Shown in pieces: positions 1-62,205 of a stretch of 64,000 bases of DNA; within the stretch, counting starts at the first letter, position 1; each line of letters opens with the position of its first letter. The notes below the pieces were generated by a model. That model did not search any database. It was not told where the DNA came from and saw only the letters and a program-made list of their open reading frames with translations. Source of the stretch: an uncultured delta proteobacterium (lineage in GTDB: Bacteria > Desulfobacterota > Binatia > Binatales > Binataceae); contig CAVXXK010000001.1 in assembly GCA_963765675.1 (NCBI GenBank), positions 1,120,001 through 1,184,000 of the forward strand, written 5' to 3'. The translations under genes were made by a program, and so were the position numbers.

Positions 1-1
1 C

Positions 2-13267: not shown

Positions 13268-13726
<459 letters not shown>

Positions 13727-13759
13727 GGCTTTTTCTTCATCACACGAGAGTGCTCAAGC

Positions 13760-19113: not shown

Positions 19114-19119
19114 CGCGCG

Positions 19120-40062: not shown

Positions 40063-40436
40063 TTCGTCTCTTGCCACTCCCGGATCTTTTCTCAAAAGTC
40101 CGATTACTGAATTGGATATGACCTACCTGTATAGCACTCATTTAAACTGTAAATCCGACTTTTAATCAGCAAATCAGCTTATCAAAAATCTACTCTTACC
40201 TACCTGACAGTCCCGAAAGTTTACAATCTGTTGGCTTGGCTTAAGTTGGCTCTTGCGCTACATCGTGCGGCAAAGAGCACGGACTTGACCATACGGTTGC
40301 GGAGTCAAGTAAGCGCGATTCATCGTCACGTTAACTCTGACCAGCGTGCGTGGGAGAAGGAACGTGAAAGTTGCCAGTTCCATAATTCGTGAGTCGGCAT
40401 GCCTCATGAAAATCGCACCGCGCGGAATGGTGAACG

Positions 40437-40667
40437 ATGGCGCGAGTAAGAGCAAGTAAAATCCTCACGGTCCAGGAGGTCAGCAACTATCTGCGTGTGC
40501 ATCCATCCACGATTTACAAATTGCTGAAGCGACATGAGCTACCAGCGTTCAGAATCGGCGGCTCGTGGCGATTCATCGACACAGACATCGACAAATGGCT
40601 GGCGCGTATTGAGACCGGCTTCACCGCCACGCCGGTGCAACCAGATGCGATGAAACCCTTGAAGTAA
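40437..40667 (+). CDS. Excisionase-like HTH DNA-binding protein
   Basis: ILTVQEVSNYLRVHPSTIYKL...LPAFRIGGSWRF...IDKWL. Confidence 0.85.
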   Translation: MARVRASKILTVQEVSNYLRVHPSTIYKLLKRHELPAFRIGGSWRFIDTDIDKWLARIETGFTATPVQPDAMKPLK

Positions 40668-41033
40668 GGTCCCCCACCTGTTCGTACCAATCGCAATATC
40701 CAAAACGCTTTGGCGACTGAGCCGTATCGCTTAGTTGAGAAATCACAGCGGATTGTCCGCTTCTCAATTGGATTATTTCGCTGCTTTCAATTGCTTCCTC
40801 GTGGGAAGCGCAGCACGACAATAGGCGACAAAATTCTGCTGCATTAACCATCGTTTCTACAAACCGTCGAGTTCTCACTCTTGTAGTGCTTTTAAGTGGA
40901 ACAATTATTTTTATTATACAAGCTTGACATAAAGCTGGTCACAACATAGCAAGTACTGTGTTCGAGCTGTTTGAAGGTATCAATTTGTTTAGCCGAGTGT
41001 TGACGAAGAATGCTGCTCAGGATGGGTTCCTGA

Positions 41034-44000
41034 ATGTTACAACGCAGAATTTTTCCCAACTTATTCTTGGCTGTGGCCTTGCTCGGCGGAGCAGCGGTCA
41101 TCACCGTCGCGGCTATCGGCAATAACCAGCGGCGTCAATCGCTCCAGCCTGCTATCTCTAAGTCCTACATCGAAACGCGAATCTCGAAAGCTTATGGCAG
41201 ATTGGCGCTATCCTTCGAGCCAAACGTCGGCCAGGCGGAACACGGCATAGATTACCTCTCTCGCTCAACCGGCTTCACGGTCTATGTGGCGCCGACTTCG
41301 GCGACGTTTGATTTTGCGGATGGCGACTCCGGCTCAGCAAGTGAGCGTCGCGAGCTGCGCATAAGATTCGAAGGCGCCGACGCACACGCGCTTCGAACCT
41401 TCGAACATCAACTGCCTGGTGTAGTGAATTACTATATCGGGAACGACCCGGCGAAGTGGCATTCGCAGGTCCCGACCTTCGCCAAAGTCGGTTACCGGGA
41501 CGCTTGGCCGGGAATCGACCTTGTTTATCACGGCACCAGGGGCCGGCTCGAATTCGACCTCGAGGCGTCACCAGGAGCCAATCTGTCGCGGGCGCAGTTT
41601 GGCCTAAGTGGTATCGGCCGGGTCGAGATCGATCGCAGCGGAAATGCGATCTTGCATTTCGCCACCGGCTCGCTGGTACTGCACAAGCCCGACGCGTGGC
41701 AGGATTACGGCGGTGTACGCCATCCGGTTGAAGTTTGCTACCGCTTGAAGAGTGGATCGCGTCTCGCGTTTACGATCGGCGCCTATGACCATACGCAGCC
41801 GCTGGTGATCGATCCTTCCTTCACCATGTCGACTTTCGTCGGCGGCCACGTCGCACAATCGAATGCAATTGCGGTGGACGCCAACGGATGGACCTATCTG
41901 ACTGGCTGGGCCAACGACAACTGCGCGAGCTGCACCAAAGATACAGGATTGTTCCCGACCACAGTCGGTTCCAGCCCCACGTTTACCAAAAGCAACACCG
42001 GCGACGCCTGGGTCGAGGTGCTCACACCGACCGGTACCGCGGTAGCATACGCAACGCTTATCGGCGGCAGCGAGTTCGACGAGGGTACTGCGCTCGCGCC
42101 CGACAACTCAGGTTCGGGGATCTCGCCTGGAAACGTATACGTGGTGGGCAATACTCAATCGACCGACTTTCCATTTAGCAACTCTCAGCCCGGGGTGGAA
42201 TTCGGCAAGGGCGATGCATGGATCGCCAAGTTCGGCCCGACCGGAACAAAGCAATTTGCCACGGAAATTGGTGGAAACCAGAGTGACGTCGCAAACGGAG
42301 TGGCCGTCCAGCCCGGATGCGCCAGCACCGCGTTGAGGCCCTGCACTCCGGTGATAGTGGGCGCGACCTTCTCGAACAACTTCGAGTCTTCCAAAACTGG
42401 TACTCTGCTCGGCTCCGAGGATGCATTTCTCGTATCGATCAATAGCGATGGAGGTGTGACAGCGTCGCAGGTGGACGGCGCCAGCACTCCCGCGAGCGCC
42501 GCCGCGTACGGAAACAGCGTCGCGATCGATGGCAGCGGCGCGATTTACGTAACCGGAGGCACTGACGCCGAAACTTTCCCCACCGCCAACTCGGCGGTGC
42601 CATTCGGAGGCACTGCGGACGCGTTCGTGATGAAGCTTCCGCCGCCAGCTCCCACTTTCTCCGCCCCTATCTGGTCGCGATTTCTCGGGGGCTCGGGTTT
42701 TGATGAGGGCTTGGGGATCGCACTGACGCCAGGTTGCCAGTCGAACTGTACCGTGTTCGTTGAAGGCAACACCTTCTCGCCCGACTTTCCCGATACAACC
42801 AGCGCAGTCTTCCAGGGCACGGGCGATACATTCGTTACGGAGCTCAGCGAAGATGGCGCGACGAATCTCTATTCCACCATGCTTGGCGGCCTCCCGGACA
42901 AGACCCTGGGCGCAATCAATGGCATCGCGGTCGATAGCAGTGGCGACGCCTTTGTGGTGGGGACCACCAGCGCGAGAAACCTGCCTTTGGTAGCCGGCTC
43001 CAATCAGTTCCAGGCCGCCAACGGCGTCGTGTTCGAGAGCACTAATAATTTCAGCACTTCCACCTTCGCCAACTTTCCAGCCTCTGCGGGGTCGGTGATC
43101 AAATTCCAGGGCGCTATACCTGCGGTCTATGCAGCAACCGAGCGCGGAGAGATCTTTAGCAGTAGCGACGGGAACATCATCTGGAACCAGGCGGCCGCCG
43201 CTGGTCTGCCATCGGGTCCAATCACTTCCTTTGTCGTCGACACGAACTTTTCCTCTCCGCTGATGTTGGCGGCGACAGGCAGCGGATTATACATCTCCAC
43301 CGACGGTGCAGCCGCCACCTTCTCCGCCACTGGAATCAATGATCAACTGGTCACCTGGACCGCCGACATCTCATCGAGCTCGAAACCACAACTCTCCAGC
43401 ACGACGGTACTGGCAGGCGTTGTGGGAGGAATTGAAGTGAGCACCGATGGCGGCACATCATTTGACCCGAGCTGTGAAGTCAAAGGATTCCCGACTAACA
43501 ACTCGATCATTGTCTATGACTGGGTGCTCGAGTCCTCGACTGGAGTTGCATATTTCGCGACCAACGAGGGCGTCTGGGCCTCTACGTCCGATGTGGTAGG
43601 GAACGCCTGCGGGTTCAGCGTAAGTCAGACTGGACTCTCGACGGTTGCAGCCCTGTCCATTCAAGCGGACCAGAAGAGCACGATCATTTATGCGGGTACA
43701 TTCGAGGACGGTCTCTATGTAAGCACGGATGGCGACAATTTCTCTTCTCTGAGTCTCGGTTTTCCTGCACCGACAGTTTCGGTTCTCGCCAACGCGGCAG
43801 CGAACGCGACACCGAATACAATTCTCGCGGGCGTGACCAGCCTCTCTGAGGCGAGCATCCTCATCTGTACCGACGGAGGAATCTCCTTCAGTACCGAAGC
43901 GAACGGGGTCCTGGATTCCAAAGGGGCCGTGAGCGCCATTGGCGCAGACGATGCTGCCGCCAATCTCGATGAGGACGCCTTTGTCGCAGAAATTGCCGCC

Positions 44001-45110
44001 AGCGGCGGCGCTCCGCAGGTGGTCGAGTACGTCGGTGGTGACAACTATGACACCGGATCTGGAATCGCGGTTAACGCCGCCGGAAGTCTTATCTTCGTAA
44101 CGGGTTCAACCTTCTCGGGAGACGGAACTTTTCCGATTGTGGATGCCATACAGAGTCAGTTCGGCGACTCAGACAGCGGTGGCTTCGTCAATGGGTTCGT
44201 TACTCAGATCAGCCAGCCCGCCGGACCGCCGTCAAGTGCAACGCCGACCAACACTCCGACCGCCGGTACGCCGACTGCGACTGAGACGGCGACGACAACT
44301 CCAAGTCCGAGCCCCTCACCCACGGTCAGCTCTACTTCCTCCGCGACCGCAACTTCAACCCCAACTCCGACGGCAGCCGCGTCGCCTACGCTGACTCCGA
44401 CCGCGACCGCATCCGCTACAGCGACACCAACCGCGGCGCCGACTCCGGTCAGCGCCAGATTGACGGCTTCGCCGAAATCGCTGGATTTCCCGGATGAAAT
44501 CGTTCTCGGCAGTAACGGCACACCAAGCCGAGCGATGAATGTCACTCTGCGCAATTCCCGGACGTCGAAACAGGATCAGCCGATCACCATATTGACCATG
44601 AGTGCGAGTCCTCCGTTCGCAGCCGCGCAAACGTGCGTCGGCCAAGCTATTCAGCCCGGCGCAACGTGCCAGGTCGCGGTCACCTTTACGCCCTCCAGCG
44701 CTGGAGTTGCGCCGGAGGGGTCGCTGGTAGTGACTAGCAACGCGAGCGATCCGTCAGTCTCAGTGAAACTCAAGGGCAAGGCTAAGACCGCTGGCATAAC
44801 GATCACTCCCAAATCACTAAGCTTCGGCAAGGTAGCGATCGGCGAGTCGAGCGCCGCGATGACGGTGACCCTTACCAACGAGAATCCACTTGTTATGACA
44901 CTCGCCGCACCTACTCTGACTGACCCGAGAGGTGAGTTTGCAATCGACACGACCAATTGCACCGCGACTCTCGCCGTTAACGGTGGAACGTGTTCCATCA
45001 GCGTACTATTCCATCCGACCGCGAAAGGATCGGCGAAGGGCGAACTCCATCTCAACGACGACGCGGCGGGTAGCCCACAGCAGGTGAAGCTAAGCGGGGT
45101 TGGTGGTTGA
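41034..45110 (+). CDS. Large secreted SBBP/beta-propeller repeat protein with PT linker and two C-terminal Ig-like (choice-of-anchor D-like) domains
   Basis: LSFEPNVGQ, VNYYIGNDPAKW, YDHTQPLVIDP, repeated IAVD..G..YVTG.T.S.DFP; Thr/Pro linker. Confidence 0.85.
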   Translation: MLQRRIFPNLFLAVALLGGAAVITVAAIGNNQRRQSLQPAISKSYIETRISKAYGRLALSFEPNVGQAEHGIDYLSRSTGFTVYVAPTSATFDFADGDSGSASERRELRIRFEGADAHALRTFEHQLPGVVNYYIGNDPAKWHSQVPTFAKVGYRDAWPGIDLVYHGTRGRLEFDLEASPGANLSRAQFGLSGIGRVEIDRSGNAILHFATGSLVLHKPDAWQDYGGVRHPVEVCYRLKSGSRLAFTIGAYDHTQPLVIDPSFTMSTFVGGHVAQSNAIAVDANGWTYLTGWANDNCASCTKDTGLFPTTVGSSPTFTKSNTGDAWVEVLTPTGTAVAYATLIGGSEFDEGTALAPDNSGSGISPGNVYVVGNTQSTDFPFSNSQPGVEFGKGDAWIAKFGPTGTKQFATEIGGNQSDVANGVAVQPGCASTALRPCTPVIVGATFSNNFESSKTGTLLGSEDAFLVSINSDGGVTASQVDGASTPASAAAYGNSVAIDGSGAIYVTGGTDAETFPTANSAVPFGGTADAFVMKLPPPAPTFSAPIWSRFLGGSGFDEGLGIALTPGCQSNCTVFVEGNTFSPDFPDTTSAVFQGTGDTFVTELSEDGATNLYSTMLGGLPDKTLGAINGIAVDSSGDAFVVGTTSARNLPLVAGSNQFQAANGVVFESTNNFSTSTFANFPASAGSVIKFQGAIPAVYAATERGEIFSSSDGNIIWNQAAAAGLPSGPITSFVVDTNFSSPLMLAATGSGLYISTDGAAATFSATGINDQLVTWTADISSSSKPQLSSTTVLAGVVGGIEVSTDGGTSFDPSCEVKGFPTNNSIIVYDWVLESSTGVAYFATNEGVWASTSDVVGNACGFSVSQTGLSTVAALSIQADQKSTIIYAGTFEDGLYVSTDGDNFSSLSLGFPAPTVSVLANAAANATPNTILAGVTSLSEASILICTDGGISFSTEANGVLDSKGAVSAIGADDAAANLDEDAFVAEIAASGGAPQVVEYVGGDNYDTGSGIAVNAAGSLIFVTGSTFSGDGTFPIVDAIQSQFGDSDSGGFVNGFVTQISQPAGPPSSATPTNTPTAGTPTATETATTTPSPSPSPTVSSTSSATATSTPTPTAAASPTLTPTATASATATPTAAPTPVSARLTASPKSLDFPDEIVLGSNGTPSRAMNVTLRNSRTSKQDQPITILTMSASPPFAAAQTCVGQAIQPGATCQVAVTFTPSSAGVAPEGSLVVTSNASDPSVSVKLKGKAKTAGITITPKSLSFGKVAIGESSAAMTVTLTNENPLVMTLAAPTLTDPRGEFAIDTTNCTATLAVNGGTCSISVLFHPTAKGSAKGELHLNDDAAGSPQQVKLSGVGG

Positions 45111-45219
45111 GGCGATCGCGAGCCGAATTAAGCATCCGAAATTTCGCCGGCAGTATGGTGACCGACCGGTTCGATCCATATCGCCGCAGCTTACTCGGCA
45201 GCTCTCCAGGAAATCGTTG

Positions 45220-46011
45220 ATGCGCCTATCAAATCGATGGCTTTCAGTTATTGCGCCGCTGGCGCTTTTGAGCCTCGCTGCCTGCCACTCGCATAGCGCG
45301 CAGAACGGCCAGAACGCGCAGGATGCGTCAGCTCCGGCGGCGAGCGTCGACCGGGGTGCCGATCAGAAGCAGGCAGCGTCTTCGAACCCGGCACCGAAAC
45401 TGGTTCTGGTCTACCGATTCCACATCCCTTCGGACTTGTTGATGGAGAGATTCTCGACTGGCGTCAGCTCTCGCGGCCGCGATACCACCTGGGAGCGGCA
45501 AATTGCTCTAGCTAACGAGGTTCAAGATGGGGTGGCACGCGACCTGGTCGATCGTATCAGTGCTCTCGGTATCCCGGCCAAGCGTTCCAGCAGCTCGCTG
45601 AACCCGACGCCGGTTTGTCTCATCCTCCAGGGACAATTCGTCAGCCGCGATCAGCTCGATCCGAGTCACCGCAACGTCATTGGATTCGAGCCAAGCCAAT
45701 CCGTGGTTGTCGTACACGTCACGCTGTCTCAGCTGGTTGCGAACAAAAGCTCAGTGGTGATGGCGTTTACGACTCGCGCGCACAGTGCTCCGATGCCGGA
45801 TGCACTAGTGAACGTTGGGGCAGGACTCGGCGGTGCCGGGAACCACAACGGCAATTCCGCGCCTACCGCAATTGAGCACTACGGGCCTCAGGTCGAAGAT
45901 CTCGCGAGCCAGAGCGCCGGTCAAATTTCGGCCCAGCTTGCACAGTACTTCAGCCAACAAGGTTGGATCAGCCCTGCCACACTGAGGAGCCAAGCCACGT
46001 CCAATCGCTAG
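45220..46011 (+). CDS. Putative lipoprotein (DUF4410-like)
   Basis: LAAC lipobox; ILQGQFVS...RNVIGF; YFSQQGWI C-terminus. Confidence 0.6.
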   Translation: MRLSNRWLSVIAPLALLSLAACHSHSAQNGQNAQDASAPAASVDRGADQKQAASSNPAPKLVLVYRFHIPSDLLMERFSTGVSSRGRDTTWERQIALANEVQDGVARDLVDRISALGIPAKRSSSSLNPTPVCLILQGQFVSRDQLDPSHRNVIGFEPSQSVVVVHVTLSQLVANKSSVVMAFTTRAHSAPMPDALVNVGAGLGGAGNHNGNSAPTAIEHYGPQVEDLASQSAGQISAQLAQYFSQQGWISPATLRSQATSNR

Positions 46012-46075
46012 CTGAATCGGCAGCAGAATTCGCCCGCACGCTCTGTATACGCGGCGTGGCGCGGATCCTAACGCA

Positions 46076-46870
46076 CTACGGTTTTGCCGGTTGGGCGGCG
46101 CTTCCTCCAATTTTTCCTCCAGCGGCCCGGGTCGATGCACGCTTGGAATTCGACTTGAAGCCCGGCGGGATTGCGAAAGTTTCGGGAGGAAGGTCCGTCA
46201 CTTCAATCTTTGAGACCTCAATCTTGCTCGTCAGCGGATGCCGTTTTGCGAGCTTTTGCTGAATCTCAACCCCCTCATTGGGAATTTTCTTTCCCTTGGG
46301 CAGGGGGCTGGCGAGCATCTCCGTAGCCGAATCAATTGCTAGCGGAATGCCTGGCGGAATAGAGATCGAAGACGGCGTCAGTCCCGCGTTCTTCAACTTT
46401 TCTGTCATGGCCGAGCGGTATTCACTGAACTCGCGGGCGCCCGGCGCGCTGCTGGAAACGCATTCGGTAGTCGTGTAACGCACATTCGGCGCTTCAATTA
46501 AACCCGCGTAATCGTCGCACGCGTAGCCTGCGATCTTGTGCGACCTCCCGGTCTTTTTAAGGTCAAACATCCCTTCGCTACGCGCGAAAATCTCGCCCAT
46601 CGGTCCGGTCGGAGGGAATGGCGCTTCCGTGTATAGCTTGTGCGCCAAATCGAGCTGATACATCTTTCCTGCATCCAAGTCGGTGATGATTGCGCCTTGG
46701 TAGAGAACAACTTTGCGCTTATGACCCTGTATCCACGTAGTCTCATTAAACGTTCGATCTTTTGCCCCGCCGCTGGTCTGCCGCTGCTCAGTGATGGTCA
46801 CTCCCGCTGAAGCGGGAATCGCCATCAGAACAAGCACGATCGCCAACGGTGCGCCGATTGTCAGTTTCAT
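46076..46870 (-). CDS. Secreted DUF4412-like protein
   Basis: Signal peptide; IITDLDAG, KTGRSHKIAGYACDDY, FAIPPGFK. Confidence 0.7.
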   Translation of the reverse strand: MKLTIGAPLAIVLVLMAIPASAGVTITEQRQTSGGAKDRTFNETTWIQGHKRKVVLYQGAIITDLDAGKMYQLDLAHKLYTEAPFPPTGPMGEIFARSEGMFDLKKTGRSHKIAGYACDDYAGLIEAPNVRYTTTECVSSSAPGAREFSEYRSAMTEKLKNAGLTPSSISIPPGIPLAIDSATEMLASPLPKGKKIPNEGVEIQQKLAKRHPLTSKIEVSKIEVTDLPPETFAIPPGFKSNSKRASTRAAGGKIGGSAAQPAKP

Positions 46871-47285
46871 GATTCAGTACCCTCCGTTTTTCTATGCGTC
46901 TTCAGAATGACCGAAAATTCGACGGAGCGGACTCCCGCGTTTGGGGTTGCGCCGGCTTTAGGCAAATGGCCGATCGTTTTGTTGCGCCGGTTAGCCAAGA
47001 AAACGCATGACTGTGTATGCGGTCGCCGTCCATCTGTCAATGTGCAGTGCGTCAATCACAGTTCCCGACCGTTCCGCGGATCGGACCAATCCGCAGCACA
47101 TTTGGCGCGCATGAAAGTAGATTATTCGACGCTCACTGGCAGCGAATTGAGTTCTTGCCGGAATAATCAATTGTCGTGATACCGCCATGAAACTACGGGC
47201 CGTCTCGACGCAAGTCCGGCGGAATTCTATCCTTGCCCCGAATGAGGTCAATTCACCATTTGCAGTCGCTCTCCGAAGAGGCCCT

Positions 47286-47807
47286 ATGTCGAAGTTGATG
47301 CTTGCTTTCGGCTCATTCGTGATCGGTGCAATCTCCACGTTCGTCGTACTTACCGGCAGTCAGGCATTGATCTGGGCGCAATCTCCTGCGGCATCATCGT
47401 CATCGTCGCCGTTAGGTTCAGCTGTACGCCCCGAGACGATTTCGGTAGACGCGCGAGTACCCAGGGTTCCAGAAATTCCGGTACGGTTCGCCAACCTGTC
47501 GTTCCCGGCTAACCAATCGGAGCAGCTTGACGGTCTGAGTTGCACGGGATGCGCCTTCAGCGATCCGTTGCTCATCTATGGAGGGGGCGAATACCAGTTG
47601 ATCAATACGACCTTCGCCAGAGGCACCCTACGGATCCAACTCGTAGGTGCGGCACAGAACACGTTCAATCTTCTCCAGCAGCTTGGACTTCTCCGTGAAC
47701 CGTCCTTCAAAGGACGGGTGCCGAAGTCCAAGGTGCCTCCCACTCAGACGGTCGAGCTCGACAAAACGATTACGATCAGCCTGAGCAGCGTTCACAGCCA
47801 GCGATAA
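47286..47807 (+). CDS. Hypothetical exported protein
   Basis: GAGG RBS, N-terminal hydrophobic segment, CxxC. Confidence 0.55.
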   Translation: MSKLMLAFGSFVIGAISTFVVLTGSQALIWAQSPAASSSSSPLGSAVRPETISVDARVPRVPEIPVRFANLSFPANQSEQLDGLSCTGCAFSDPLLIYGGGEYQLINTTFARGTLRIQLVGAAQNTFNLLQQLGLLREPSFKGRVPKSKVPPTQTVELDKTITISLSSVHSQR

Positions 47808-48034
47808 AATCGCAGAGCGCTTTTTGTCCGCAGAGCGCACTCCGGCGACAGCCAAAACTGTCGACCCGGGCGAGTTTTGAGCGATTGGCCGAATTTAGAC
47901 GTTGAAGTGGATAGAAATTGCCAATGCGAAGGGACCAGTCGCGGCTAGGTATGAGGGCATGATTGAGACGATTCGGCGGCTAACATTAAGTTAGCTAAAC
48001 TTGCTTTAAGCTGAAGTTCTTTGTCAATCCCGCT

Positions 48035-48120
48035 GAAAGAAAGGAGCGCCAGCCGTAACCCATCTTAGCAGGAGGAGGAACGGACTGGCGCCCCGGCCCT
48101 CGGTATTACCTCGGGACCAT
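48035..48120 (-). ncRNA. Putative anti-Shine-Dalgarno small RNA
   Basis: Promoter TTGCTG-18-TAGATT (48155-48126), 5' hairpin, 10-bp terminator stem plus TTTCTTTC; contains 29 nt complementary to 48733-48761. Confidence 0.65.
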
Positions 48121-48762
48121 CAAACAATCTAGCAAACGCGGTAATCTGTCAGCAATCGGGCGAACCAAAGTTTAAACCCGCGCATTTCTACCGAACTCTC
48201 AACCGGCGTTGCGATCTGTTCTTAGAATTTGGTCGAGAGGTTAGGTACGTCGCCTCAAATCAAAATTGTTGGTAAATACGATCGTAACTTCGTTCAGGCA
48301 AGTTGTTTCTAGGGTATGCCTATCCAAACTGGCCACTGCTCTATAAACGGCGAGATGTATTTTAATATGCCGTCCCATCACAAAATTCATCGCAACGTCG
48401 CAAAAGTAAGATATCAGGAAAAAAACGGTTTTTTAGCTGATTGTTATAATAATTGTCACTGAGTAGGTGATACCTAGATGAAACCGTATCCCCGTAGGGG
48501 CTTTCGCTCTGTTATTGGGTGTGTAAGAGGAAAACAAAGAGACAATTTTTATGACATTTCGATCACAATTTGTGCTTTGACTCATGCTTGCAACACGGCT
48601 GTACAAGTGGGATAAACCACGAGACGCAACGAAAACACGCGAAAGAAGTGCAAGAGCAAGCCTTAAGCATTCCTGAGCGCTTCGGAGGTTCGCAAGCAGA
48701 AAAGACACCGAATTAGTTTTAGCTCTAATAGTCCGTAACCCATAGCAGGAGGAGGAACGGAA

Positions 48763-49446
48763 ATGCGTAAGAGCCCAATCAACCAAACGGTCTTAGCATG
48801 GGCCGGCGTACTGGCGATAGCGCTGGGCGCCGTGATCTTGCTTGGACCAACAGCCCAGGCGGGTACGTTGCGCCGGGCTGGAACCAACCAAACCGGTTCA
48901 GGCGGTGCCGATCCTGGCACGTTCCTGACCGGTTATTTTGACACCGCACCTGGTTCCGAAGCATTTGGCGCCGGAGATAACGCTCTGCGGATCGAGAATC
49001 CGACGGCGGCCAACGGCAATCTGTGCGCGATGATCTACATCTTCGATGCGAGCGAAGAGCTCGGCGAATGTTGTGGATGTGTCCTGACTCCCAACCAACT
49101 GCTGCAGGATAGCGTTGACACTATTATCGGCAGCGCGTGGGAGATCAGCGGCGGGACCCCGGAGCAGGGCGTGATTCAGATCGTGAGTGCACTGCCCAAT
49201 GTGGGAACGACCTGCAACCCGGCGGCTGCCTACACCCCGACTGCGAACCTCAACGGCTGGGTGACCCATGCGCAGACGGTTGGCGGAATCACCGGCCTGA
49301 CTGAGGTGAGCCTGACGGATAACGGAGCAGCCGATGCGACTGAGGCGGCCTACCTCATCTCGACCTGCGGCGACATTCTGAGCAACGGCTCAGGCAAAGG
49401 TGACTGCACTTGTCCGACTCAGCCAGATGGAGTTCTCGCACCGTAG
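48763..49446 (+). CDS. Secreted Cys-rich hypothetical protein, paralog 1
   Basis: Strong RBS, signal peptide, LCAMIYIFDASEELGECCGC, 8 Cys. Confidence 0.85.
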   Translation: MRKSPINQTVLAWAGVLAIALGAVILLGPTAQAGTLRRAGTNQTGSGGADPGTFLTGYFDTAPGSEAFGAGDNALRIENPTAANGNLCAMIYIFDASEELGECCGCVLTPNQLLQDSVDTIIGSAWEISGGTPEQGVIQIVSALPNVGTTCNPAAAYTPTANLNGWVTHAQTVGGITGLTEVSLTDNGAADATEAAYLISTCGDILSNGSGKGDCTCPTQPDGVLAP

Positions 49447-49483
49447 CCGCGGGCAGTACACGAGGACACGGGAGGAACAAATT

Positions 49484-50206
49484 ATGAAAAGTAAGTCTAT
49501 AAAGAGTATGGCTCTGGCATGGACGGGCGCTCTGGCCATCGCGTTTGGGGCTGCGCTCGTCCTGAGTCCGACTGCCTATGCGCAGCCGGGTACTTTCCTG
49601 ACGGGGACTTTCGATCTTACGGCCGGTTCCGAAGCATTTGGCGCAGGAGATAATGCTCTGCGGATCGAGAACCCCACCGCGGCAAATGGCGATCTGTGCG
49701 CGATGGTCTACATCTTCGATGCGAGCGAAGAGCTCGGCGAATGTTGCGGTTGTGCCCTAACCCCGAACCAGCTGCTCTCGGACAGCGTTGAGACAATCCT
49801 GAGCGACACCTGGGAGATCAACGGTGGGACACCTGCGCAGGGCGTGATCCAGATCGTGAGCGCACTGCCCAATGCGGGGGCGGACTCGTGCAACCCTGCG
49901 AAGGCGTATACCCCGACCGCGAACCTTAACGGTTGGGTAACCCATGCGCAGAGAGTCGGCAGCGTTGGCGGTCTTACCGAGGTGAGCCTGACTGACAACG
50001 GAGCGGCCGACGCGACCGAGGCATCATTCCTGATCGCGGAGTGCGGAGACATCCTGTCCAATGGCTCGGGCTTTGGGAGCTGTGCTTGCCCGACTCAGCC
50101 CGACGGGACGTATACCGAAACCGCGGTGAAGACTGCCGGAACCGCAGTGAAGACAAAGCTAAGCAAAGTCAAGGCGTCCAATAGTCATGGCGTCGGAGTG
50201 AGATGA
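49484..50206 (+). CDS. Secreted Cys-rich hypothetical protein, paralog 2
   Basis: GGGAGG RBS, signal peptide, same Cys pattern, basic C-terminal extension. Confidence 0.85.
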   Translation: MKSKSIKSMALAWTGALAIAFGAALVLSPTAYAQPGTFLTGTFDLTAGSEAFGAGDNALRIENPTAANGDLCAMVYIFDASEELGECCGCALTPNQLLSDSVETILSDTWEINGGTPAQGVIQIVSALPNAGADSCNPAKAYTPTANLNGWVTHAQRVGSVGGLTEVSLTDNGAADATEASFLIAECGDILSNGSGFGSCACPTQPDGTYTETAVKTAGTAVKTKLSKVKASNSHGVGVR

Positions 50207-50245
50207 CGATCGGTGCGCTACGCGTACGCTCAAGGAGGAATCGAA

Positions 50246-50926
50246 ATGCGTAAAAGTTCATTTAATCAAACGGTTGCAACATGGGCCGGCGTACTGGCGA
50301 TTGCACTGGGCGCCGTGATCATGCTTGGACCAACGGCCCAAGCGGGTACGTTGCGTCGGGCCGGGACCAACCAAACCGGTTCAGGCGGTGCCGATCCTGG
50401 CACGTTCCTGACCGGTTATTTTGACACCGCACCTGGTTCCGAAGCATTTGGCGCCGGAGATAACGCTCTGCGGATCGAGAATCCGACGGCGGCCAACGGC
50501 AATCTGTGCGCGATGATCTACATCTTCGATGCGAGCGAAGAGCTCGGCGAATGTTGTGGATGTGTCCTGACTCCCAACCAACTGCTGCAGGATAGCGTTG
50601 ACACTATCATCGGCAGCGCGTGGGAGATCAGCGGCGGGACCCCGGAGCAGGGCGTGATTCAGATCGTGAGTGCACTGCCCAATGTGGGAACGACCTGCAA
50701 CCCGGCGGCTGCCTACACCCCGACTGCGAACCTCAACGGCTGGGTGACCCATGCGCAGACGGTTGGCGGAATCACCGGCCTGACTGAGGTGAGCCTGACG
50801 GATAACGGAGCAGCCGATGCGACTGAGGCGGCCTACCTCATCTCGACCTGCGGCGACATTCTGAGCAACGGCTCAGGCAAAGGTGACTGCACTTGCCCGA
50901 CTCAGCCAGATGGAGTTCTCGACTAG
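50246..50926 (+). CDS. Secreted Cys-rich hypothetical protein, paralog 3 (near-identical to paralog 1)
   Basis: AGGAGG RBS; mature region identical to paralog 1 except the extreme C-terminus. Confidence 0.85.
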   Translation: MRKSSFNQTVATWAGVLAIALGAVIMLGPTAQAGTLRRAGTNQTGSGGADPGTFLTGYFDTAPGSEAFGAGDNALRIENPTAANGNLCAMIYIFDASEELGECCGCVLTPNQLLQDSVDTIIGSAWEISGGTPEQGVIQIVSALPNVGTTCNPAAAYTPTANLNGWVTHAQTVGGITGLTEVSLTDNGAADATEAAYLISTCGDILSNGSGKGDCTCPTQPDGVLD

Positions 50927-51013
50927 AGCGTTCTCATGCGAAGCCGCGCCGCCGGGCTTTTCCGGCGGCCGGCATCGCAAACAGTGACGAAAATCGCAAC
51001 AGGAGATCAGACT

Positions 51014-52189
51014 TTGAATCATTTAAAGATCAGCAAGCTTATAGCAGTCGCTCTCCTTGCCGGCGTAGTCAGTTTCGGTACTGCCTCCTTGGGCGACGAT
51101 CGGCCGGTCGGTTCGGCACCGGCAGTGGCTCAAGTAGGCAATGTACAAATCAGCCTCGACAAAGTTGAACAGAGTTCGGGATCGAGCCTGACTCAAGCGC
51201 GCGGCAGAGTCCTCAACGCGCAGTATCAATACTATGTCGCGCAGCATGAAGCACTGGAAAAGCTGATCGACAAGGAAGTCCTCGAGCAACAGGCTCGCAA
51301 GGAGAAGGTAACCGTCGAAGAGCTCCTCCGCCGACACATCAAGGACACCATCAAGGATCCCAGCGAAGAGACGATGAGAATCTATTACATCGCCCTTCAA
51401 ACGGATCAGCCCTACTCTGATCTACGCGGCAAGATCCGCGACCATATTCGCGACTTGGAGGAGCGCAAGTTGGTCGCCGACTACGTCAAGTCGCTTCGCG
51501 CTCAAGACAAGATCCAGATCATGCTCGAACCTCCGCGAGAGGAGGTGGCTACCGGCGCCACGCCCACGATGGGACCGGCCGCCGCTCCGGTGACGGTGGT
51601 GGAATTTGCGGACTATCAATGCCCCTATTGCCGCGGCACCGAAGCCAATGTCGACAAACTCCGCGCGCAATTCAAGGATCAGGTGCGCTACTCATACCGC
51701 GACTTCCCCCTCCCCAATCATCAGTTCGCGGAAAAGGCTGCCGAGGCGTCCAGATGCGCGGCTGATCAGGGAAAATTTTGGCAGTACCACGATCTTCTGT
51801 TCACCGGCGATGGCAGCGACCTCAACGTAGCAGGTCTCAAGGCATTAGCGAGCAAGGAAAAACTCGACACCGCCAAGTTCGACCAGTGCCTGGACTCGAA
51901 CAAGGAACAAGCCGCAGTCCAAGCGGATCTTAAACAGGGTGAATCGCTAGGCGTCTCGGGAACTCCGAGCTTCTTTGTCAATGGTTATTTCATCAGTGGC
52001 TCGGTGACCTACGACACGCTGAGAGAACTGGTAGAGCAGCAGATTGCCGACGCGCATGCTGCGTCCGGTTCCACGATTGGAGAGCGATCCGGCACCGCGC
52101 ACTCGGCCAACAGCGCCGACTGTAATACGGCTCGCTCGGCCTCTATGGATCGCGCCGCGAGCGGGAAAATCTGCAGATTTCCTGGATAA
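51014..52189 (+). CDS. DsbA-family thioredoxin-fold protein with SurA-like N-terminal region
   Basis: VVEFADYQCPYC, RDFPL, KFWQYHD, GVSGTPSFFVNG; TTG start after AGGAG. Confidence 0.88.
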   Translation: MNHLKISKLIAVALLAGVVSFGTASLGDDRPVGSAPAVAQVGNVQISLDKVEQSSGSSLTQARGRVLNAQYQYYVAQHEALEKLIDKEVLEQQARKEKVTVEELLRRHIKDTIKDPSEETMRIYYIALQTDQPYSDLRGKIRDHIRDLEERKLVADYVKSLRAQDKIQIMLEPPREEVATGATPTMGPAAAPVTVVEFADYQCPYCRGTEANVDKLRAQFKDQVRYSYRDFPLPNHQFAEKAAEASRCAADQGKFWQYHDLLFTGDGSDLNVAGLKALASKEKLDTAKFDQCLDSNKEQAAVQADLKQGESLGVSGTPSFFVNGYFISGSVTYDTLRELVEQQIADAHAASGSTIGERSGTAHSANSADCNTARSASMDRAASGKICRFPG

Positions 52190-52540
52190 GCAGTCGCGCG
52201 GAAAGCTATCGGATCAGCGGTTGAAAACATGGTCTCGAAGGCAGCAATAGATGCGAGCGCAAACCACTGGTGGGTTTATTTGAAGCTGCATGGACTAGCC
52301 TCACGCAGCCGACTTGGCGCGTGCGTGTATGCGGGGGCTGAGAGCGCACACGACTCTCATGCTGCCGCGGAATCGAGCTTCGCTAGCTTGTCCGGCCCTT
52401 CGACTCTCCTCGGCTCGATAACCGATTGAGATGAACAACTCGAGTGACAAGGCCTCGCGCGCGAGGCACGGCAGGACTCGCTCATCAGCATGGATTCGCA
52501 TAGGCACGATATCGCTGTCACAAAAAGGTCGAATCAATTT

Positions 52541-55500
52541 ATGAAGAAGTTAGCCAGACAAAAATCGTCTCTGTATGTCACCGGCTTGCTCGCCATAATT
52601 GGCGCCCTAATCCTGCTGCTTTCTTCGGGCTCGCATGTAATGACAGCGGAGGCATGGATGCACGCGCGGCAGTCGAATAAGACGACTACGCCGCAGGAGC
52701 GGCAGGCGGCACGCGAGGAGTACTGGGCGAGCCGGCACGGATTGCAGTACGGGTTTCCCAAGCACGCGCTTAGCGAGGCGGTATCGCAGATGCGCGCGAT
52801 GGAAAGCGCGCGGCAGAGCAAGCAAGCGGGGTCGTTGTCGCAAGTGGTGGGGACGCCAGATGTATCGGAGTTGACCTGGAACTTCATCGGTCCGCAGCCG
52901 ATTACCGAGAAGTCCAACTTTACCGGCAAGGTGTTCGGCAGTGACTTTGCCGCCACCGGGCGGATAACTTCGGTGGCCGCAGACGCCAACGGAGTGATAG
53001 TGGCGGGGGCGGCGTCGGGAGGGGTGTGGCTGAGCACCAACAATGGGACGACATTTGCACAGATCTTCAATAGCGAACCAACCCAGGCGGTGGGCGCGAT
53101 TGCGCTGGACACCACCACCACGCCGAGCACGATCTATGTGGCCACCGGCGAGGGCAACGGCTCATTGGACTCGCTATACGGGCAGGGCGTCTTCAAGTCG
53201 TCGGATCTGGGAGAGAGTTGGACGTCGCTGGGGTCGAGCGGCCAGTTCGATCACGCCTCGTTCACCAGTCTTGCGATCGACACCACCACCACGCCTGGGA
53301 CTCCGCGCCTGTTCGCGGGAGCGACCAATGGGCTGAGCGCGAGCGAAGCCGATGCGGCGATCTTTGAAACCGAAACCGGCGACACCGGCCTATGGTTCTC
53401 CGGCAACGGCGGCACCACCTGGACGCAGTACCCCGCGTCCACATTCGGCAACTGTGAAATCATAGGCGGCGTCAACTCTCCGTGTCCCGCCGACGACGTG
53501 AAAATTGATCCCAGCAATCCGCAGAATGTCTACGTCGCGATCGATTCCAACGATGTCTACTATTCGCATGACGGTGGCCAGACCTTCACGGCCGCATCAT
53601 TCCCCGGCGGCAGCATCGCGCAAGGACGCCAAAGTCTGGCAGTTGGTTCCCCGAAGAGTGCCGGGCTGCCGGGCGTGGTTTACGCGATGATCGGAGCCGA
53701 AAATGGCTCCAGTTATACAAACCTGTTCGTTTCGTTCGACGGAGGCGTTACGTGGAATCCGACCACCGGTCCGAACGCCATCCTGACACCGACGGTTCCG
53801 TCCTTCACCCAAAATGGCTTGGTGCTAGACGGCACCGGCGTGGGTAATGTCTCACAGTCGTATTTCGACCAGGCGATGCTGGTCTCACCCAGCAATTCCA
53901 AAGTCGTATATTTTGGGGGCGTTGGCCTATACGAGTCGACCAACTGGGGCAACCAATGGAGCTTCCTGCCGTCCAACGGAGGTCTACATCCTGGTCAGCA
54001 CGCGCTGGTCTTTGATCCATCGACCGGCCAGATCCTGGTTGCGAACGACGGCGGCTTGTACAGCTTCAATCCCGCGACGCCGAATACCTTTACTTCCCTG
54101 AACGCAAGCATCAGCGCGAGCCAGATCCAGGGGATCGGCGTGCATCCGACCAACAGCAATGTGATGATCGCCGGACTGCAGGACAACGGCACCCAGCTTT
54201 ACAGTGGTGAAGTCGGGACCTGGTCTGGCGCCGACAGCGAGAGCGGCGATGGCGGGTTCGCGCTGATCGATCCGAACGATCCCACCCACGTCTATCACGA
54301 CTTCTCGATCGCCGAACTGAGTGGTGCGCTGATCTCGGAATCGATCAATAGCGGCTCGACCTGGTGCAGCGCGACGGTGACTGGGCCGAACCCGTGCAAC
54401 GCCCCTGATGCCTGGACTCCTAACCTCAAAGCGGCCATGTCCGCAGCGGATGACCCGGGTCCTGCGTTCTATCCACCGATGGCGGTCGATCCAAAAACCG
54501 CCTACCGTGTGCTGTTCGGCGCTCATGCAGTCTACGTCTCGACCAATGGAATGCAGACCTGGACCTTGCAGAGCAATCAGGACCTGACCAGCGACGGGAT
54601 CGACGGTGCTGACGTCTGCACTGATGCGACCTGTTCGCTCGAGGATATCGAGTTCGCGCCGTCGGACCACACCAAAGCGTGGGCGGTGGCGATGAGCAAT
54701 CTCTCCGGCTCGGTCGCCTTTGCGGTCAGCAACACCACCCAGGCGAACATCTTTGTGAACGGGAGTAACCCGAACGGCGGACTGTGGACCGACGTCACCG
54801 ATGCGATCAACAGTGTGTTTCCAGTGGTAAATACGCAGGCCACTGGCATCGCAGTCGATCCGAACAATTCCAATGTCGCATACCTGAGCCTCTCCGGGTT
54901 CCACGCTGACACCGAAGTCGGACATATCTACAAGACGATCAACTTTGGCAAATCCTGGACCGAAGCCGACGGCTCGACGGCCAACGGCAACACTCCCGGT
55001 TCATCGCCTTTGCCTGACGTGCCGGTGCTGAAGATCCTTGTTGATTCGACCGATACCAGCGGAAGTTGCGGTGGCTCGCCGTGCAGCAACAGCATCTACG
55101 CGGGAACCGACATCGGGGTGTTCCACAGCGCGGACGGGGGCAACACCTGGCAACCGTACAATCTGAATGTGATTCCCGCGGTACCGGTGTATGACATGGC
55201 CCAGAACACTCCGGGCAACATCTTCGTCGGAACCCACGGACGCGGGGTCTATCAGCTCGCGCCGGTAACCAGTGCCACCCCGACCCCGACTCCAAGCACC
55301 AGCCCGACCCCGACCGCCACTGCGACGTCAACCGCTGGCGGCAGCCCGACTCCGAGCGCGACCGCGACTCCAACCGGCACTCCGTCGCCAACCCAGACCG
55401 CTACCCAGACCCCCACTCCGATGCCGACTCCTACCCCGGTGGTCGAAAAGCTCACGATTTCGCCTAAGACGCTGAGCTTCGGCAAAGTCCGAGATGGCGC

Positions 55501-55783
55501 GAGCAAGTCTAAGCTCGTCACCATCAAGAACGCGGGCTCGAAGAAGAGCGGCAACACGGTGCAAATTGGAACGCCGACAATTTCGGGTTCCGGAGCGGCG
55601 GATTTTTCGGTGACGAGCGGCTGCCAGGTCCCGCTCGCGCCACAAAAGAGCTGTAAGCTTTCGATCACATTCAGCCCTGGGCAGGCCACGAGCACGGAGG
55701 ACGCCACGCTCGGGGTCCTAGACAACGTAGCGGGACCGGAAGTGATGATTCCGATGACGGGGAGCGGTAAGGCCCCGAAATGA
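52541..55783 (+). CDS. Secreted BNR/Asp-box beta-propeller (VPS10/glycosyl hydrolase-like) protein with PT linker and Ig-like C-terminal domain
   Basis: Repeated S.DGG.TW, GRITSVA, YVATGE, NDGGLY, GTHGRG. Confidence 0.85.
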   Translation: MKKLARQKSSLYVTGLLAIIGALILLLSSGSHVMTAEAWMHARQSNKTTTPQERQAAREEYWASRHGLQYGFPKHALSEAVSQMRAMESARQSKQAGSLSQVVGTPDVSELTWNFIGPQPITEKSNFTGKVFGSDFAATGRITSVAADANGVIVAGAASGGVWLSTNNGTTFAQIFNSEPTQAVGAIALDTTTTPSTIYVATGEGNGSLDSLYGQGVFKSSDLGESWTSLGSSGQFDHASFTSLAIDTTTTPGTPRLFAGATNGLSASEADAAIFETETGDTGLWFSGNGGTTWTQYPASTFGNCEIIGGVNSPCPADDVKIDPSNPQNVYVAIDSNDVYYSHDGGQTFTAASFPGGSIAQGRQSLAVGSPKSAGLPGVVYAMIGAENGSSYTNLFVSFDGGVTWNPTTGPNAILTPTVPSFTQNGLVLDGTGVGNVSQSYFDQAMLVSPSNSKVVYFGGVGLYESTNWGNQWSFLPSNGGLHPGQHALVFDPSTGQILVANDGGLYSFNPATPNTFTSLNASISASQIQGIGVHPTNSNVMIAGLQDNGTQLYSGEVGTWSGADSESGDGGFALIDPNDPTHVYHDFSIAELSGALISESINSGSTWCSATVTGPNPCNAPDAWTPNLKAAMSAADDPGPAFYPPMAVDPKTAYRVLFGAHAVYVSTNGMQTWTLQSNQDLTSDGIDGADVCTDATCSLEDIEFAPSDHTKAWAVAMSNLSGSVAFAVSNTTQANIFVNGSNPNGGLWTDVTDAINSVFPVVNTQATGIAVDPNNSNVAYLSLSGFHADTEVGHIYKTINFGKSWTEADGSTANGNTPGSSPLPDVPVLKILVDSTDTSGSCGGSPCSNSIYAGTDIGVFHSADGGNTWQPYNLNVIPAVPVYDMAQNTPGNIFVGTHGRGVYQLAPVTSATPTPTPSTSPTPTATATSTAGGSPTPSATATPTGTPSPTQTATQTPTPMPTPTPVVEKLTISPKTLSFGKVRDGASKSKLVTIKNAGSKKSGNTVQIGTPTISGSGAADFSVTSGCQVPLAPQKSCKLSITFSPGQATSTEDATLGVLDNVAGPEVMIPMTGSGKAPK

Positions 55784-55805
55784 CAGGGAGGAAGCTGTCA
55801 TTAGA

Positions 55806-55848
55806 ACTCCGCGGGGGCAAGATTGGCGCCCCTTGCCTCCCGCGGAGT
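55806..55848. terminator. Hairpin between convergent genes
   Basis: ACTCCGCGGGGGCAAG...CTTGCCTCCCGCGGAGT. Confidence 0.55.
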
Positions 55849-55907
55849 GTCAGAGCTTCGGAAAGAAGACTTAGGAAAGCGGCGAGACATCGGCCGGCAC
55901 GTGGGCC

Positions 55908-58119
55908 TCAACTCCCATTGAGGACGGCCGTTGCCTTGTTCAGCCGATCGCTATACGCGTTGAGCGCCTCGGCAGTGAGCTCGACGTATCTGTTGGCGTC
56001 GGTCCAGCGTCGGTCTTCGATCGCCTCGCGAATACCGGGTAAGGTCTTGGCTCCGTAGCCGGTGAAGCGACCGGGTGCGTAAACGAGATTCTTGTACCAG
56101 CTCCTACCGGGCAGCCCCACCTCGGGCGCGAGAGTCTGGTCGATGTTCAACATCAACACCTGCAGGCGCGCAATCTGACCGGCGGACAGGCTTGAAGCGT
56201 TTTTCGCGAGCGCGTCGTCGTAAGCCTTGGCGGCGCGCTTCAGACGACTTACGGAGTTCTCGAGCGCCGCGAACTCCAGGTGCGGGACACGATCCAGCGC
56301 CGTGGGCAGCCCGCTCGACTTGGTGGGATCGGACGCCAGCTGGAATGCTCGGTCGCGTAGCAGCTTGGCTTGCGTGTCAGCCTCCTCCCGTTCGTCGACC
56401 GAGAGTTTCTTCACCTGATCGAGATAGTCCGAGACCGCGTTGGCGAAATCGCTCGCGTTCTGGACGGGAACCTCGGAATCGGCGACGCGCAGTACTATCC
56501 GTCCCGACCGTCTTTGCCAGCATCGCGTCATATACGAAACCCGGATCGACGAAGCGGCTGTGATGCTCGAAAGTGTCGTAACGAGAGTGGTAGACGCCAT
56601 TGGAATGGCCCTCTTCGCCGAAAGCAACATCCAGCGCAGGCACACCCAGGTGATCAAGAAAGGCTGAAAAGTCGGAACCCGAACCCAGTGCCCCGATAGG
56701 GAAGTCCTTGTCCGGATCGGCTGCGATCTTCGCCTCGTTCTTGACTTGCTCCGTGGCGCTCGGTGCGAGCGCAGCGATTCGCATCTTGGCGCGCAGCCGC
56801 TGGCCGATGGAAACGCCGGTTTCAGGATCGACTACATCGGCGGCGACTTCGTTCACCAGGTGCTGGAAGTCGGGGCTGCCCCCTACCTCCAGAAAGCCTC
56901 GTTCGTTGGAGTCGGAGTTTATATAGAGGACGACTTTCTTTTTCAGTTCAGTCGCGTGCTGCTCCGCCCATTCGGTCGAGCCCAAGAGCATGGGCTCCTC
57001 GGCGTCCCAACTCGTATAGACGATCGTACGCTTGGGCCGCCAACCCTGCTTGGCGAGGCGGCCGAACGCCTTGGCTTCGGCCAGCAGCGCGACTTGACCC
57101 GACAGTGGGTCGGTGGCGCCGAACACCCAACCGTCGTGATGATTGCCACGGACCACCCACTGGTCCGGCCAGGTCGCGCCCTTCATGGTCGCGATAACGT
57201 CATAGATTGGCCGGATCTGCCAATCGGACCTCACCGCCAGATGGACTAGCGCAGGCCCTGGTCCAACGCGATAGGTGATTGGCAGCGCGCCACGCCAGGC
57301 GGGAGGAGCGACAGGACCTGCCAGCGCCGCGAGGAAAACCTGAGCGTCGGCGTATGAGATGGGCAGCGTGGGAATCTTCAAGATGGTCGGCGCGTCGGAA
57401 ATCTTCAGCCGCTTGGCGTCCTTCGTCGCACCGACCCCAGGCGTTAACGGATCGCCGGGATAGAGCCCCACGTCGAGCACGGAGCCGCGTTGTATACCAC
57501 GAGGCGGCCGCATTGGACCGTTGGGATAAGTCTCGTCGATGGAATAACCGTCTTGGGCAGGGTCGGAGTATATGATGCAGCCTATCGCGCCGTGATCCTG
57601 CGCGAGCTTGGGCTTCAGCCCGCGCCATCCAGAGCCGTAGCGCGCGATGACGATCTTGCCCTTTACGCTAACGCCGAGACGCTGGAGCGTCTTGTAGTCG
57701 TCCAGCATCCCATAGTTAACATAGACCAGGCCGGCGGTGACGTCGCCATCATGCTGGTAATCGACGTAGGCTGGAAGCGCGGGATCGGTCGCGGTCGCAC
57801 TGGAATCGCCAGGGATCGGTGGCTCTTGCAGCGTGGCTTTGAACGTACGCGGACCGACCAGCTCCAAGGTCTCGCTTATAGGCTTGGGGTAGAGCACCCA
57901 GAAAGTTTCAATGTGCGCATCCCAGCCCCAACTCTTGAACCAGGCAAGGATTTGATAGGCGTTGGCTTTGTCGTGCGGCGAGGAGACGTGGTTCGGCTGC
58001 GCGGCAAGTAGCTTCATCCAGTCGCGCAGATCGTCCGGGCGAATTAGCGCGTCAAAGTTATGTTCGAGCGTGGCCTCATTTGACGATGTCGAGGTTGGTG
58101 CGGCGAGGGCCACGCTCAT
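55908..58119 (-). CDS. M28 peptidase (glutamate carboxypeptidase II-like, PA and TfR dimer domains), frameshift near 56500; start approximate
   Basis: GNHHDGWVFGATDP, WDAEE, GSGSDF, YHSRYD; C-terminal GLPGRSWYKNLVYAPG. Confidence 0.88.
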
Positions 58120-58206
58120 CCAAAGAAAGCCCGCCGTCGCGAGCGAGATGATCAGCTTCGATCTAATTTTTAGTTCCCGGCTTGTCTAATTCTCAGGGAG
58201 ACCAAC

Positions 58207-58425
58207 CTAGGCGCGTTTCTTTTTTTTCTCCGCCCAGCGTTTTTTCATCGCCTCCGACAGTCGCTTCCTGCCTGCCGGAGTGATCCCGCTGCGCTTTGGG
58301 CGACCGATGCGTTTGCTTGGGGTCGCGCCGGCTGCGGTCGCTCCGACAGCGGCGAGGGCGCTAATCGCGCGATCGATCCGGTCACGTTCGCTCTTTAACT
58401 CTGCAAGGATTCTCACAAGATCCAA
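58207..58425 (-). CDS. Small basic hypothetical protein
   Basis: GGAGAG RBS, coiled-coil N-terminus, GRKRLSEAMKKRWA tail. Confidence 0.65.
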   Translation of the reverse strand: MDLVRILAELKSERDRIDRAISALAAVGATAAGATPSKRIGRPKRSGITPAGRKRLSEAMKKRWAEKKKKRA

Positions 58426-58750
58426 TGTTGCTCTCCTTATAGTACCGCTTATACAGCGCGCCCTTGGTGCCGCTTGCGCCCCGGAACCGCGCCTAACATT
58501 TCATCTATGGTGAGGGCTTGCAATCCTTCATGGCCTTAAGGACGGTCTGATTCGCGACACAAGAGTGCAACCCAGGCACGAAGCGAATCGAGTCTCTGAG
58601 GCATGATTGGTGGGCTGCTTGCGGTCATTTGGTTCTTTTTGAACGAAATCGAGTAAGCTCGATTATGTCCGCTATCGCGATTCCAACGCGGCCTCAGTGA
58701 GAAATAATCGCTTGTCTCGGTAATGCGGCGAGTGATGAAGTGAGCCTCTC

Positions 58751-59396: not shown

Positions 59397-62205
<2,809 letters not shown>

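Follow-up and report, generated by a model that had tools for sequence, protein, structure and literature searches.

The intergenic region ahead of an operon for secreted, cysteine-rich proteins in an uncultured member of the Binataceae appears to encode a narrowly distributed, locus-linked antisense small RNA (sRNA) that would block translation initiation of the operon's first gene, a reading to which, judging from sequence comparisons, we assign a probability of roughly 0.55. The region lies within a 64,000-nucleotide stretch of DNA (hereafter, the window), taken from a metagenome-assembled genome (MAG) of 4.5 Mb in 16 contigs that is 95.6% complete and has a G+C content of 61.5%. According to this reading, an RNA of about 85 nt would be transcribed from the minus strand, from about position 48120 down to 48035, by a promoter with a TG-extended -10 element, and would consist of a small 5' hairpin, a long hairpin and a U-run, with the long hairpin doubling as the terminator. 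Its 23-nt loop would be an antisense version of the leader ahead of the first gene in a divergent operon (three secreted Cys-rich paralogues followed by a DsbA-like oxidoreductase), pairing with leader positions -30 to -2 by means of an anti-Shine-Dalgarno (anti-SD) block and an upstream GGGUU:AACCC block, and thereby covering the ribosome-binding site and blocking the initiation of translation. The long duplex would probably also expose the mRNA to RNase III, for which the genome carries a gene, and expression of the operon as a whole would probably be lowered, be it through lost translation or through cleavage of the duplex. The sRNA gene itself would have arisen by direct duplication of the leader DNA, with the copy now read the opposite way, such that sRNA gene and target travel as one duplication unit. 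We infer transcription, termination, repression and the involvement of RNase III from the anatomy, conservation and predicted pairing of the element, a search for RNA sequencing runs over 47810-49450 having listed none.

The predicted transcript (48035-48120, minus strand) measures about 84-86 nt, its 5' end being placed from the position of the -10 hexamer and its 3' end from the U-run. Ahead of it lies a putative promoter (48126-48155, minus strand) composed of a -35 hexamer TTGCTG (48155-48150), an 18-nt spacer, a TG dinucleotide (48134-48133) and a -10 hexamer TAGATT (48131-48126). The 5' hairpin (48095-48118, minus strand) has an outer stem that is invariant among homologous copies and an internal loop and inner stem that vary. 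The predicted recognition/terminator hairpin (48043-48094, minus strand) is built of a 10-bp outer stem (48043-48052 paired with 48085-48094), a bulged U, a 4-bp inner stem (CCGT/ACGG, with arms at 48053-48056 and 48080-48083) and a 23-nt loop (48057-48079) presenting UCCUCCUCCUGCU...GGGUU; directly past the hairpin, the U-run (48035-48042, minus strand) reads TTTCTTTC. The minus-strand sequence folds into these two hairpins at -45.4 kcal/mol (z -2.9), and the long stem includes a G-U pair at a place where the plus strand would have a mismatched A-C. No open reading frame (ORF) of 30 or more amino acids in the program-made ORF list overlaps the element on either strand, and a search of 47000-51500 against Rfam 15 (cmscan, E up to 10) returned no family at 48035-48761, its two weak matches being to snoRNA models elsewhere (50873-50910 and 51241-51287). 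The intergenic region that holds the element (47808-48762; 955 bp) has a G+C content of 46.9%, against 61.5% for the genome.

A preliminary description of this DNA had claimed that positions 48053-48084 repeat the leader of the downstream gene exactly, apart from a 3-nt insertion, and this holds: all 29 of the other bases are identical to 48733-48761, with an inserted CTT at 48064-48066, and the genome contains just these two copies. When 48020-48140 was compared with its own genome (blastn; 4,516,620 bases), the element matched only itself and the leader (E 3.8e-5), a pair that also appears as family D5 in the repeat finder output. The target site in the leader of gene 1 (48733-48761, plus strand) spans -30 to -2 from the ATG and includes the Shine-Dalgarno (SD) run GGAGGAGGA at 48748-48756, and the duplex predicted between it and the sRNA loop comprises 29 Watson-Crick pairs and a 3-nt bulge, at about -57 kcal/mol. 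In an 8-mer-seeded duplex scan of 1,819 genome sites, the gene-1 leader ranked first among all trans sites (-56.6 kcal/mol, the next being -43.6). The net cofold gain of the pair, calculated after unfolding both partners and on the presumption that the terminator stem opens, is -28.1 kcal/mol, as opposed to -2.4 +/- 1.6 for 100 shuffled leaders. Because the leader is weakly structured (z +0.7), with a centroid fold consisting of a small 5-bp hairpin that displays the SD in its loop, a loop-loop start of pairing is plausible in these models. Pairing with the gene-1 leader, as originally proposed, is thus favored by the modeling, the leader being the top trans site and its complementary blocks being retained among copies; but a weaker action on genes 2 and 3, also proposed, is not, as their net gains (-0.7 and -1.5 kcal/mol) do not exceed that of the shuffled leaders.

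The intergenic region (47810-48800) has no DNA matches in any of 40 relatives, and the Cys-rich protein family is itself patchy, being present in 10 of 60; in L005, the closest homologue (59% identical) from the initial set of 60 relatives, the upstream context differs, with neither leader nor element. Scanning public genomes with the Cys-rich protein led to a MAG from a different genus of the same family (CAWJFQ01; G061, the same as G159), which contains at least six loci with about 80% amino-acid identity. A search of this genome with the element returned four homologous copies of 78-88% identity, each situated 270-650 bp upstream of a paralogue with the same class of leader as gene 1 (termed here class A), in the same orientation as in the window and pointing away from that gene. 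One of these loci, L024, is fully syntenic with the window, from the upstream 190-aa gene through the element, the triplet and the DsbA-like gene to the next gene; here the element is 88% identical over 101 nt, compared with 72-79% for the flanking coding genes. A further, decayed copy that has lost its 5' arm and loop occurs on a metagenome contig (L039). L031 (3001-3677), a paralogue with a class-A leader, lacks the sRNA element within 3 kb upstream, and its match comes as three tblastn segments with overlapping coordinates, which suggests frameshifts.

A covariance model (R1) built from the five aligned copies (alignment A2) has strong matches in only two of 151 genomes of the family, namely the window genome (one copy, scoring 102.9 bits) and CAWJFQ01 (four copies), and the window copy has every feature by which we define this sRNA family (two hairpins, an anti-SD loop, a U-run and a divergent position beside a class-A-leader gene of the Cys-rich family). 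Weaker matches in three other genomes (G110, G170 and G017; E 6e-4 to 1e-2) are probably due to chance, none being located beside a gene of the Cys-rich family; that in G170 (L059) is situated beneath a long open frame and has a loop similar to the anti-SD block, for which reason it is dismissed less firmly. Two pattern scans of 185,579 species genomes recovered the CAWJFQ copies and otherwise nothing credible: five matches in other phyla were taken as chance on taxonomy alone, and two more, situated beneath long open frames and lacking a flanking stem, were likewise taken as chance. Given that strong matches to the model are confined to two of 151 genomes and that the scans add nothing credible to them, the sequences point to an sRNA family that is real but very narrow.

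Across the five copies, which are paralogues from only two genomes and hence not independent, 91.4% of the cells in the long (terminator) helix are paired, and when the 3' partners are shifted along by 1-3 columns, the paired fraction of the structure as a whole falls from 83.6% to 33-48%. A single compensatory change, in which one stem pair is converted from G-C to A-U on both sides, occurs in two copies. Covariation in homologous loci, which the preliminary description had put forward as a check, is therefore present in this one pair but lacks statistical backing: in the column-shuffle control, 230 of 500 shuffles reach the observed percentage of paired cells and 45 of 500 reach the covariation score, a non-significant outcome that is to be expected from only five related sequences. 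The pattern of tolerated changes is more telling as to strand, in that a G-U pair in a minus-strand stem corresponds to an A-C mismatch on the plus strand. In nine cells of the terminator helix, a minus-strand G-U corresponds to a plus-strand A-C, whereas the reverse asymmetry is limited to two cells, both belonging to the degenerate copy L026; in total, canonical pairs fill 92 of 110 cells when the minus strand is read and 83 of 110 when the plus strand is read. Similarly, the RNAalifold consensus is -30.4 kcal/mol for the minus strand, where the two-hairpin structure is recovered, and -21.0 for the plus strand, and in the 5' hairpin the four outer pairs are invariant in all five copies, one of them a U-G whose plus-strand counterpart would be a mismatched C-A.

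These asymmetries bear on the possibility that the functional product is instead a structured RNA of the plus strand, whose SD-like, GGA-rich loop might act as a CsrA-sponge decoy (the alternative offered in the preliminary description), as a ribosome decoy or as a 3'-UTR element of the gene at 47187-47807. The plus strand does fold well (-39.9 kcal/mol, z -3.1, with none of 200 shuffles as good), and its loop contains three overlapping GGA motifs, recalling the sponge RNAs of the CsrB/RsmZ type, which display GGA motifs in hairpin loops. Unlike those RNAs, however, the element has one such hairpin only, and the strand evidence favors the opposite strand: A-C mismatches interrupt the plus-strand stem, and the plus-strand consensus is 9.5 kcal/mol worse. 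Nor is there a U-run downstream on the plus strand, and the upstream gene falls outside the duplicated unit in three of the four CAWJFQ01 copies, at odds with a role in its 3' UTR. CsrA (PF02599) was found neither in the window genome (95.6% complete) nor in CAWJFQ01, although control genomes matched, a result that weakens the CsrA-decoy reading in particular, and we consider a plus-strand product in any of its three versions improbable. A CTG-initiated ORF of 15 codons past the SD-like loop on the plus strand was dismissed, its frame (judged by eye) not being kept in L025.

On the minus strand, neither the promoter nor the terminator of the element was called by a simple consensus scanner, because the promoter hexamers match at 8 of 12 positions and the hairpin loop is above the scanner's 8-nt limit. 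The terminator candidate consists of a 14-bp interrupted stem followed by the U-run, and its loop, 23-26 nt across copies, is unusually large for an intrinsic terminator. In two 20-kb sections of the window (1-20000 and 40001-60000), terminator-like sites were no more frequent than in shuffled sequence (14 versus 18.4 and 12 versus 18.6), such that termination by a hairpin plus U-run is best called putative in this host, and canonical intrinsic terminators may be uncommon in its genome. Promoter-like sites in the same two sections were barely more numerous than in shuffles, or fewer. Comparison among copies nevertheless lends support to both signals: in alignment A1, conservation covers the -35 core and the TG/-10 stretch on either side of a variable spacer, with -35 to -10 spacings of 18, 20, 18, 18 and 16 nt and -10 variants TAGATT, TAGATT, TAGACC, TAAATC and CAAGTC (of which CAAGTC belongs to the degenerate copy), and the T-run after the stem is kept in four of the five despite substitutions, reading TTCTTCTG, TTTTTTGG and TTATTTTG in the homologous copies and TTTGGAC in the degenerate one. 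The minus-strand unit first outlined from the window sequence (promoter, 5' hairpin, recognition/terminator hairpin and U-run) thereby gains the support of five copies from two genomes.

The hairpin might, alternatively, be nothing other than the 3' end of a longer minus-strand antisense transcript that starts in or near gene 1 and crosses the entire intergenic region, in which case the promoter at 48126-48155 would go unused and any regulation would come about through cis-antisense overlap and not through the duplicated loop. A terminator-like hairpin and the minus-strand evidence fit such a transcript equally well, and the promoter is weak, with its partial match to consensus, its failure to be called and its variable spacing. 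Left unexplained, however, would be the two leader-complementary loop blocks kept in all five copies as well as the conservation of the -35 core and the TG/-10 around a variable spacer, and the DNA that the longer transcript would have to cross is unconserved from the element to about 48620 even at the orthologous locus, where blastn leaves 48141-48620 unaligned with L024. We regard the longer transcript as unlikely.

The remaining intergenic DNA has several features of its own. About 300 bp at roughly 48160-48560 are shared by the window and L024 and missing from the shorter paralogous loci. A conserved block, AAGAAGTGCAAGAGC, occurs together with its neighbors in the presumed 5' UTR (window 48640-48700; L024 1350-1410; also in L026, L027 and L039), has a GTGAT...ATCAC palindrome ahead of it in four loci, and could be a promoter/operator of the operon or a structure in its mRNA. 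A plus-strand operon promoter guessed at 48588-48622 (a TTGCAA-like hexamer, 17 nt and GATAAA, in the window and L025) was set aside, as this form is not conserved elsewhere. Finally, L024 contains on its plus strand, at 1155-1170, a TTTCCTCCTC run that is anti-SD-like in cis and is absent at the equivalent place in the window.

Two classes of leader were distinguished at the CAWJFQ01 loci. The class-A leader, carried by their first genes and shared with gene 1 of the window, consists of GTAACCCA, a variable linker and AGCAGGAGGAGGAA, and the class-B leader, which differs from it, is carried by internal genes and is like that of gene 3; within the triplet, gene 1 alone has the sRNA-matching leader. 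All five sRNA loops retain the two leader-complementary blocks, that is, the anti-SD block and GGGUU:AACCC, forming 22-29 Watson-Crick and 0-4 G-U pairs with the leader next to each, while the linker that separates the blocks varies in both length and sequence. In L024, three of the five differences between element and leader are C-to-T changes by which pairing is kept as G-U. Any loop combined with any class-A leader yields predicted duplexes of -34 to -57 kcal/mol, compared with -22 to -35 for the leaders of internal genes, and the net gain is small (-4.6 and -4.9 kcal/mol) for two of the five adjacent pairs. Co-variation of each sRNA with its own adjacent leader was not found, the L024 loop being best or tied on all eight class-A leaders, and in the absence of such pair-specific matching, the modeled duplexes suggest that the sRNA copies probably act on all class-A leaders in trans.

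Retention of these blocks also speaks to the view that no sRNA acts at all, and that the element is a non-functional relic of duplication that came to lie beside a palindrome, or else one of a pair of DNA operators bound by a regulator. Duplication is frequent in this family (three copies of the gene here and at least six loci in CAWJFQ01), copies of the element decay (L026, L039), the covariation control is not significant, and recent gene conversion could be why element and leader match exactly in the window. At the orthologous locus, however, the element is better conserved than the coding DNA that flanks it, and the compensatory stem change, the strand-specific G-U pattern and the retained T-runs also speak against this view. 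The conservation of the blocks while their linker varies is what is expected of pairing blocks and not of neutral decay. In the degenerate copy L026, the stem is broken, the -10 has degenerated and the T-run is gone, a joint loss in keeping with the decay of a single functional unit. A relic or an operator pair therefore seems to us a doubtful explanation, about on a par with the longer transcript, and we favor the antisense sRNA.

Parallels to this arrangement exist among characterized regulatory RNAs. RsaE/RoxS of the Firmicutes pair through C/U-rich unpaired motifs with G-rich ribosome-binding sites and do not require Hfq, and these sRNAs are unlinked to their multiple targets and recognize them by short seeds. 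The window element resembles them in opposing a predicted C-rich loop to a G-rich ribosome-binding site, but differs from them in being linked to its target and in its 29 nt of complementarity, which extends past the SD; no Rfam family was matched. Hfq (PF17209) was not found in the window genome, a 95.6%-complete MAG in which its absence is unproven.

The arrangement at the locus is closer to that of divergent type I toxin-antitoxin systems. In tisB/istR-1, shoB/ohsC, zorO/orzO and dinQ/agrB of E. coli, as outlined in PMC4147584, a divergent, non-overlapping sRNA gene lies upstream of its target and is complementary to the target's long 5' UTR, with repression at the level of translation and, in some cases, cleavage of the duplex by RNase III. 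The sRNA gene in the window is similarly upstream of its target and read away from it, but unlike at these loci, as they are outlined there, the predicted pairing covers the SD itself, up to -2. The same source describes the par locus of pAD1 (RNA I/Fst and RNA II), where direct repeats are read in opposite directions and pairing blocks ribosome binding, and where the two RNAs converge and share a terminator, the target being a 33-aa toxin (PMC4147584). The complementarity in the window likewise derives from direct DNA repeats read in opposite directions, whereas, relative to that account of par, the sRNA and target genes diverge and are about 650 bp apart. What type I systems target, according to the portion of the literature summarized in PMC11264685, is a small toxic protein, as a rule shorter than 60 aa and usually hydrophobic, and it is here that the resemblance ends: although the sRNA matches the mRNA of its neighboring gene in antisense, its complementarity lies at the SD of a 227-aa ORF whose product is secreted and which has two paralogues and a DsbA-like gene downstream, and there is no sequence relationship to type I loci and no Rfam match. 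The likeness to a type I antitoxin noted in the preliminary description consequently extends to the divergent arrangement and the complementarity but not to the nature of the target, and the element is not a member of the type I systems as defined.

The presumed target operon begins with gene 1 (48763-49446, plus strand), which specifies a 227-aa protein of an uncharacterized family, with a signal-like N-terminus and eight cysteines. It is followed by gene 2 (49484-50206, plus strand), a paralogue that is 77% identical to gene 1 and has a different leader, and by gene 3 (50246-50926, plus strand), a paralogue that is 98% identical to gene 1 and has a class-B leader; the three proteins are 227-240 aa long, and each has a signal-like N-terminus and eight cysteines. 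The same pattern of identities among genes 1, 2 and 3 is seen in L024, which would mean either that the triplet is older than the separation of the two genera or that gene conversion has homogenized genes 1 and 3. The Cys-rich family matched no Pfam family and, by profile, nothing in the PDB; its 75 homologues are all unnamed or labeled "hypothetical", and a query of the Atlas through the homologue P0041 led only to unnamed clusters from Acidobacteriota. In one relative (G052) the family has expanded to 39 matches, some of them within ORFs of 300-630 aa, and most relatives have none.

Nine nucleotides past gene 3 lies a gene for a DsbA-like thioredoxin with a SurA-like N-terminal domain (50936-52189, plus strand; Pfam Thioredoxin_4 1e-33, DSBA 2.6e-20 and SurA_N_3 1.7e-8), which is syntenic in L024 and probably belongs to the same operon as the triplet. 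This DsbA/SurA-like fusion is likely dedicated to the Cys-rich proteins, as a helper in their folding or disulfide formation. On either side of the locus, a very large protein is encoded that is predicted to be secreted and has Pro/Thr-rich linkers (41034-45110, 1358 aa; 52490-55783, 1097 aa), the latter of which is also syntenic in L024.

On a more speculative note, and with little confidence, the locus could be seen as an addiction-like or otherwise tightly gated module of a new type, in which the sRNA holds back a large exported Cys-rich protein that is harmful to its producer or serves as a secreted weapon, and in which sRNA, leader and gene multiply together. If that were true, the module would follow a toxin-antitoxin logic akin to that of type I systems, with a "toxin" that is secreted and is not a peptide, and no regulatory RNA would have been described earlier for the uncultured phylum to which the Binataceae belong. 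Antisense occlusion of a ribosome-binding site is in itself a well-known mechanism. A full-text literature search found no paper on a small RNA in Binatota, and the sRNA proposed here, if confirmed, would represent a family of regulatory RNAs that Rfam does not contain, from a lineage for which metagenomes are the only source. Its origin would be readable from the sequence, as a duplicate of the leader that was captured in a hairpin and is read backwards, and that duplicates and decays along with its target. The sRNA would also extend the divergent, locus-linked arrangement of type I antitoxins to an operon whose products are secreted and rich in disulfides, and would offer a handle on when that operon is expressed.
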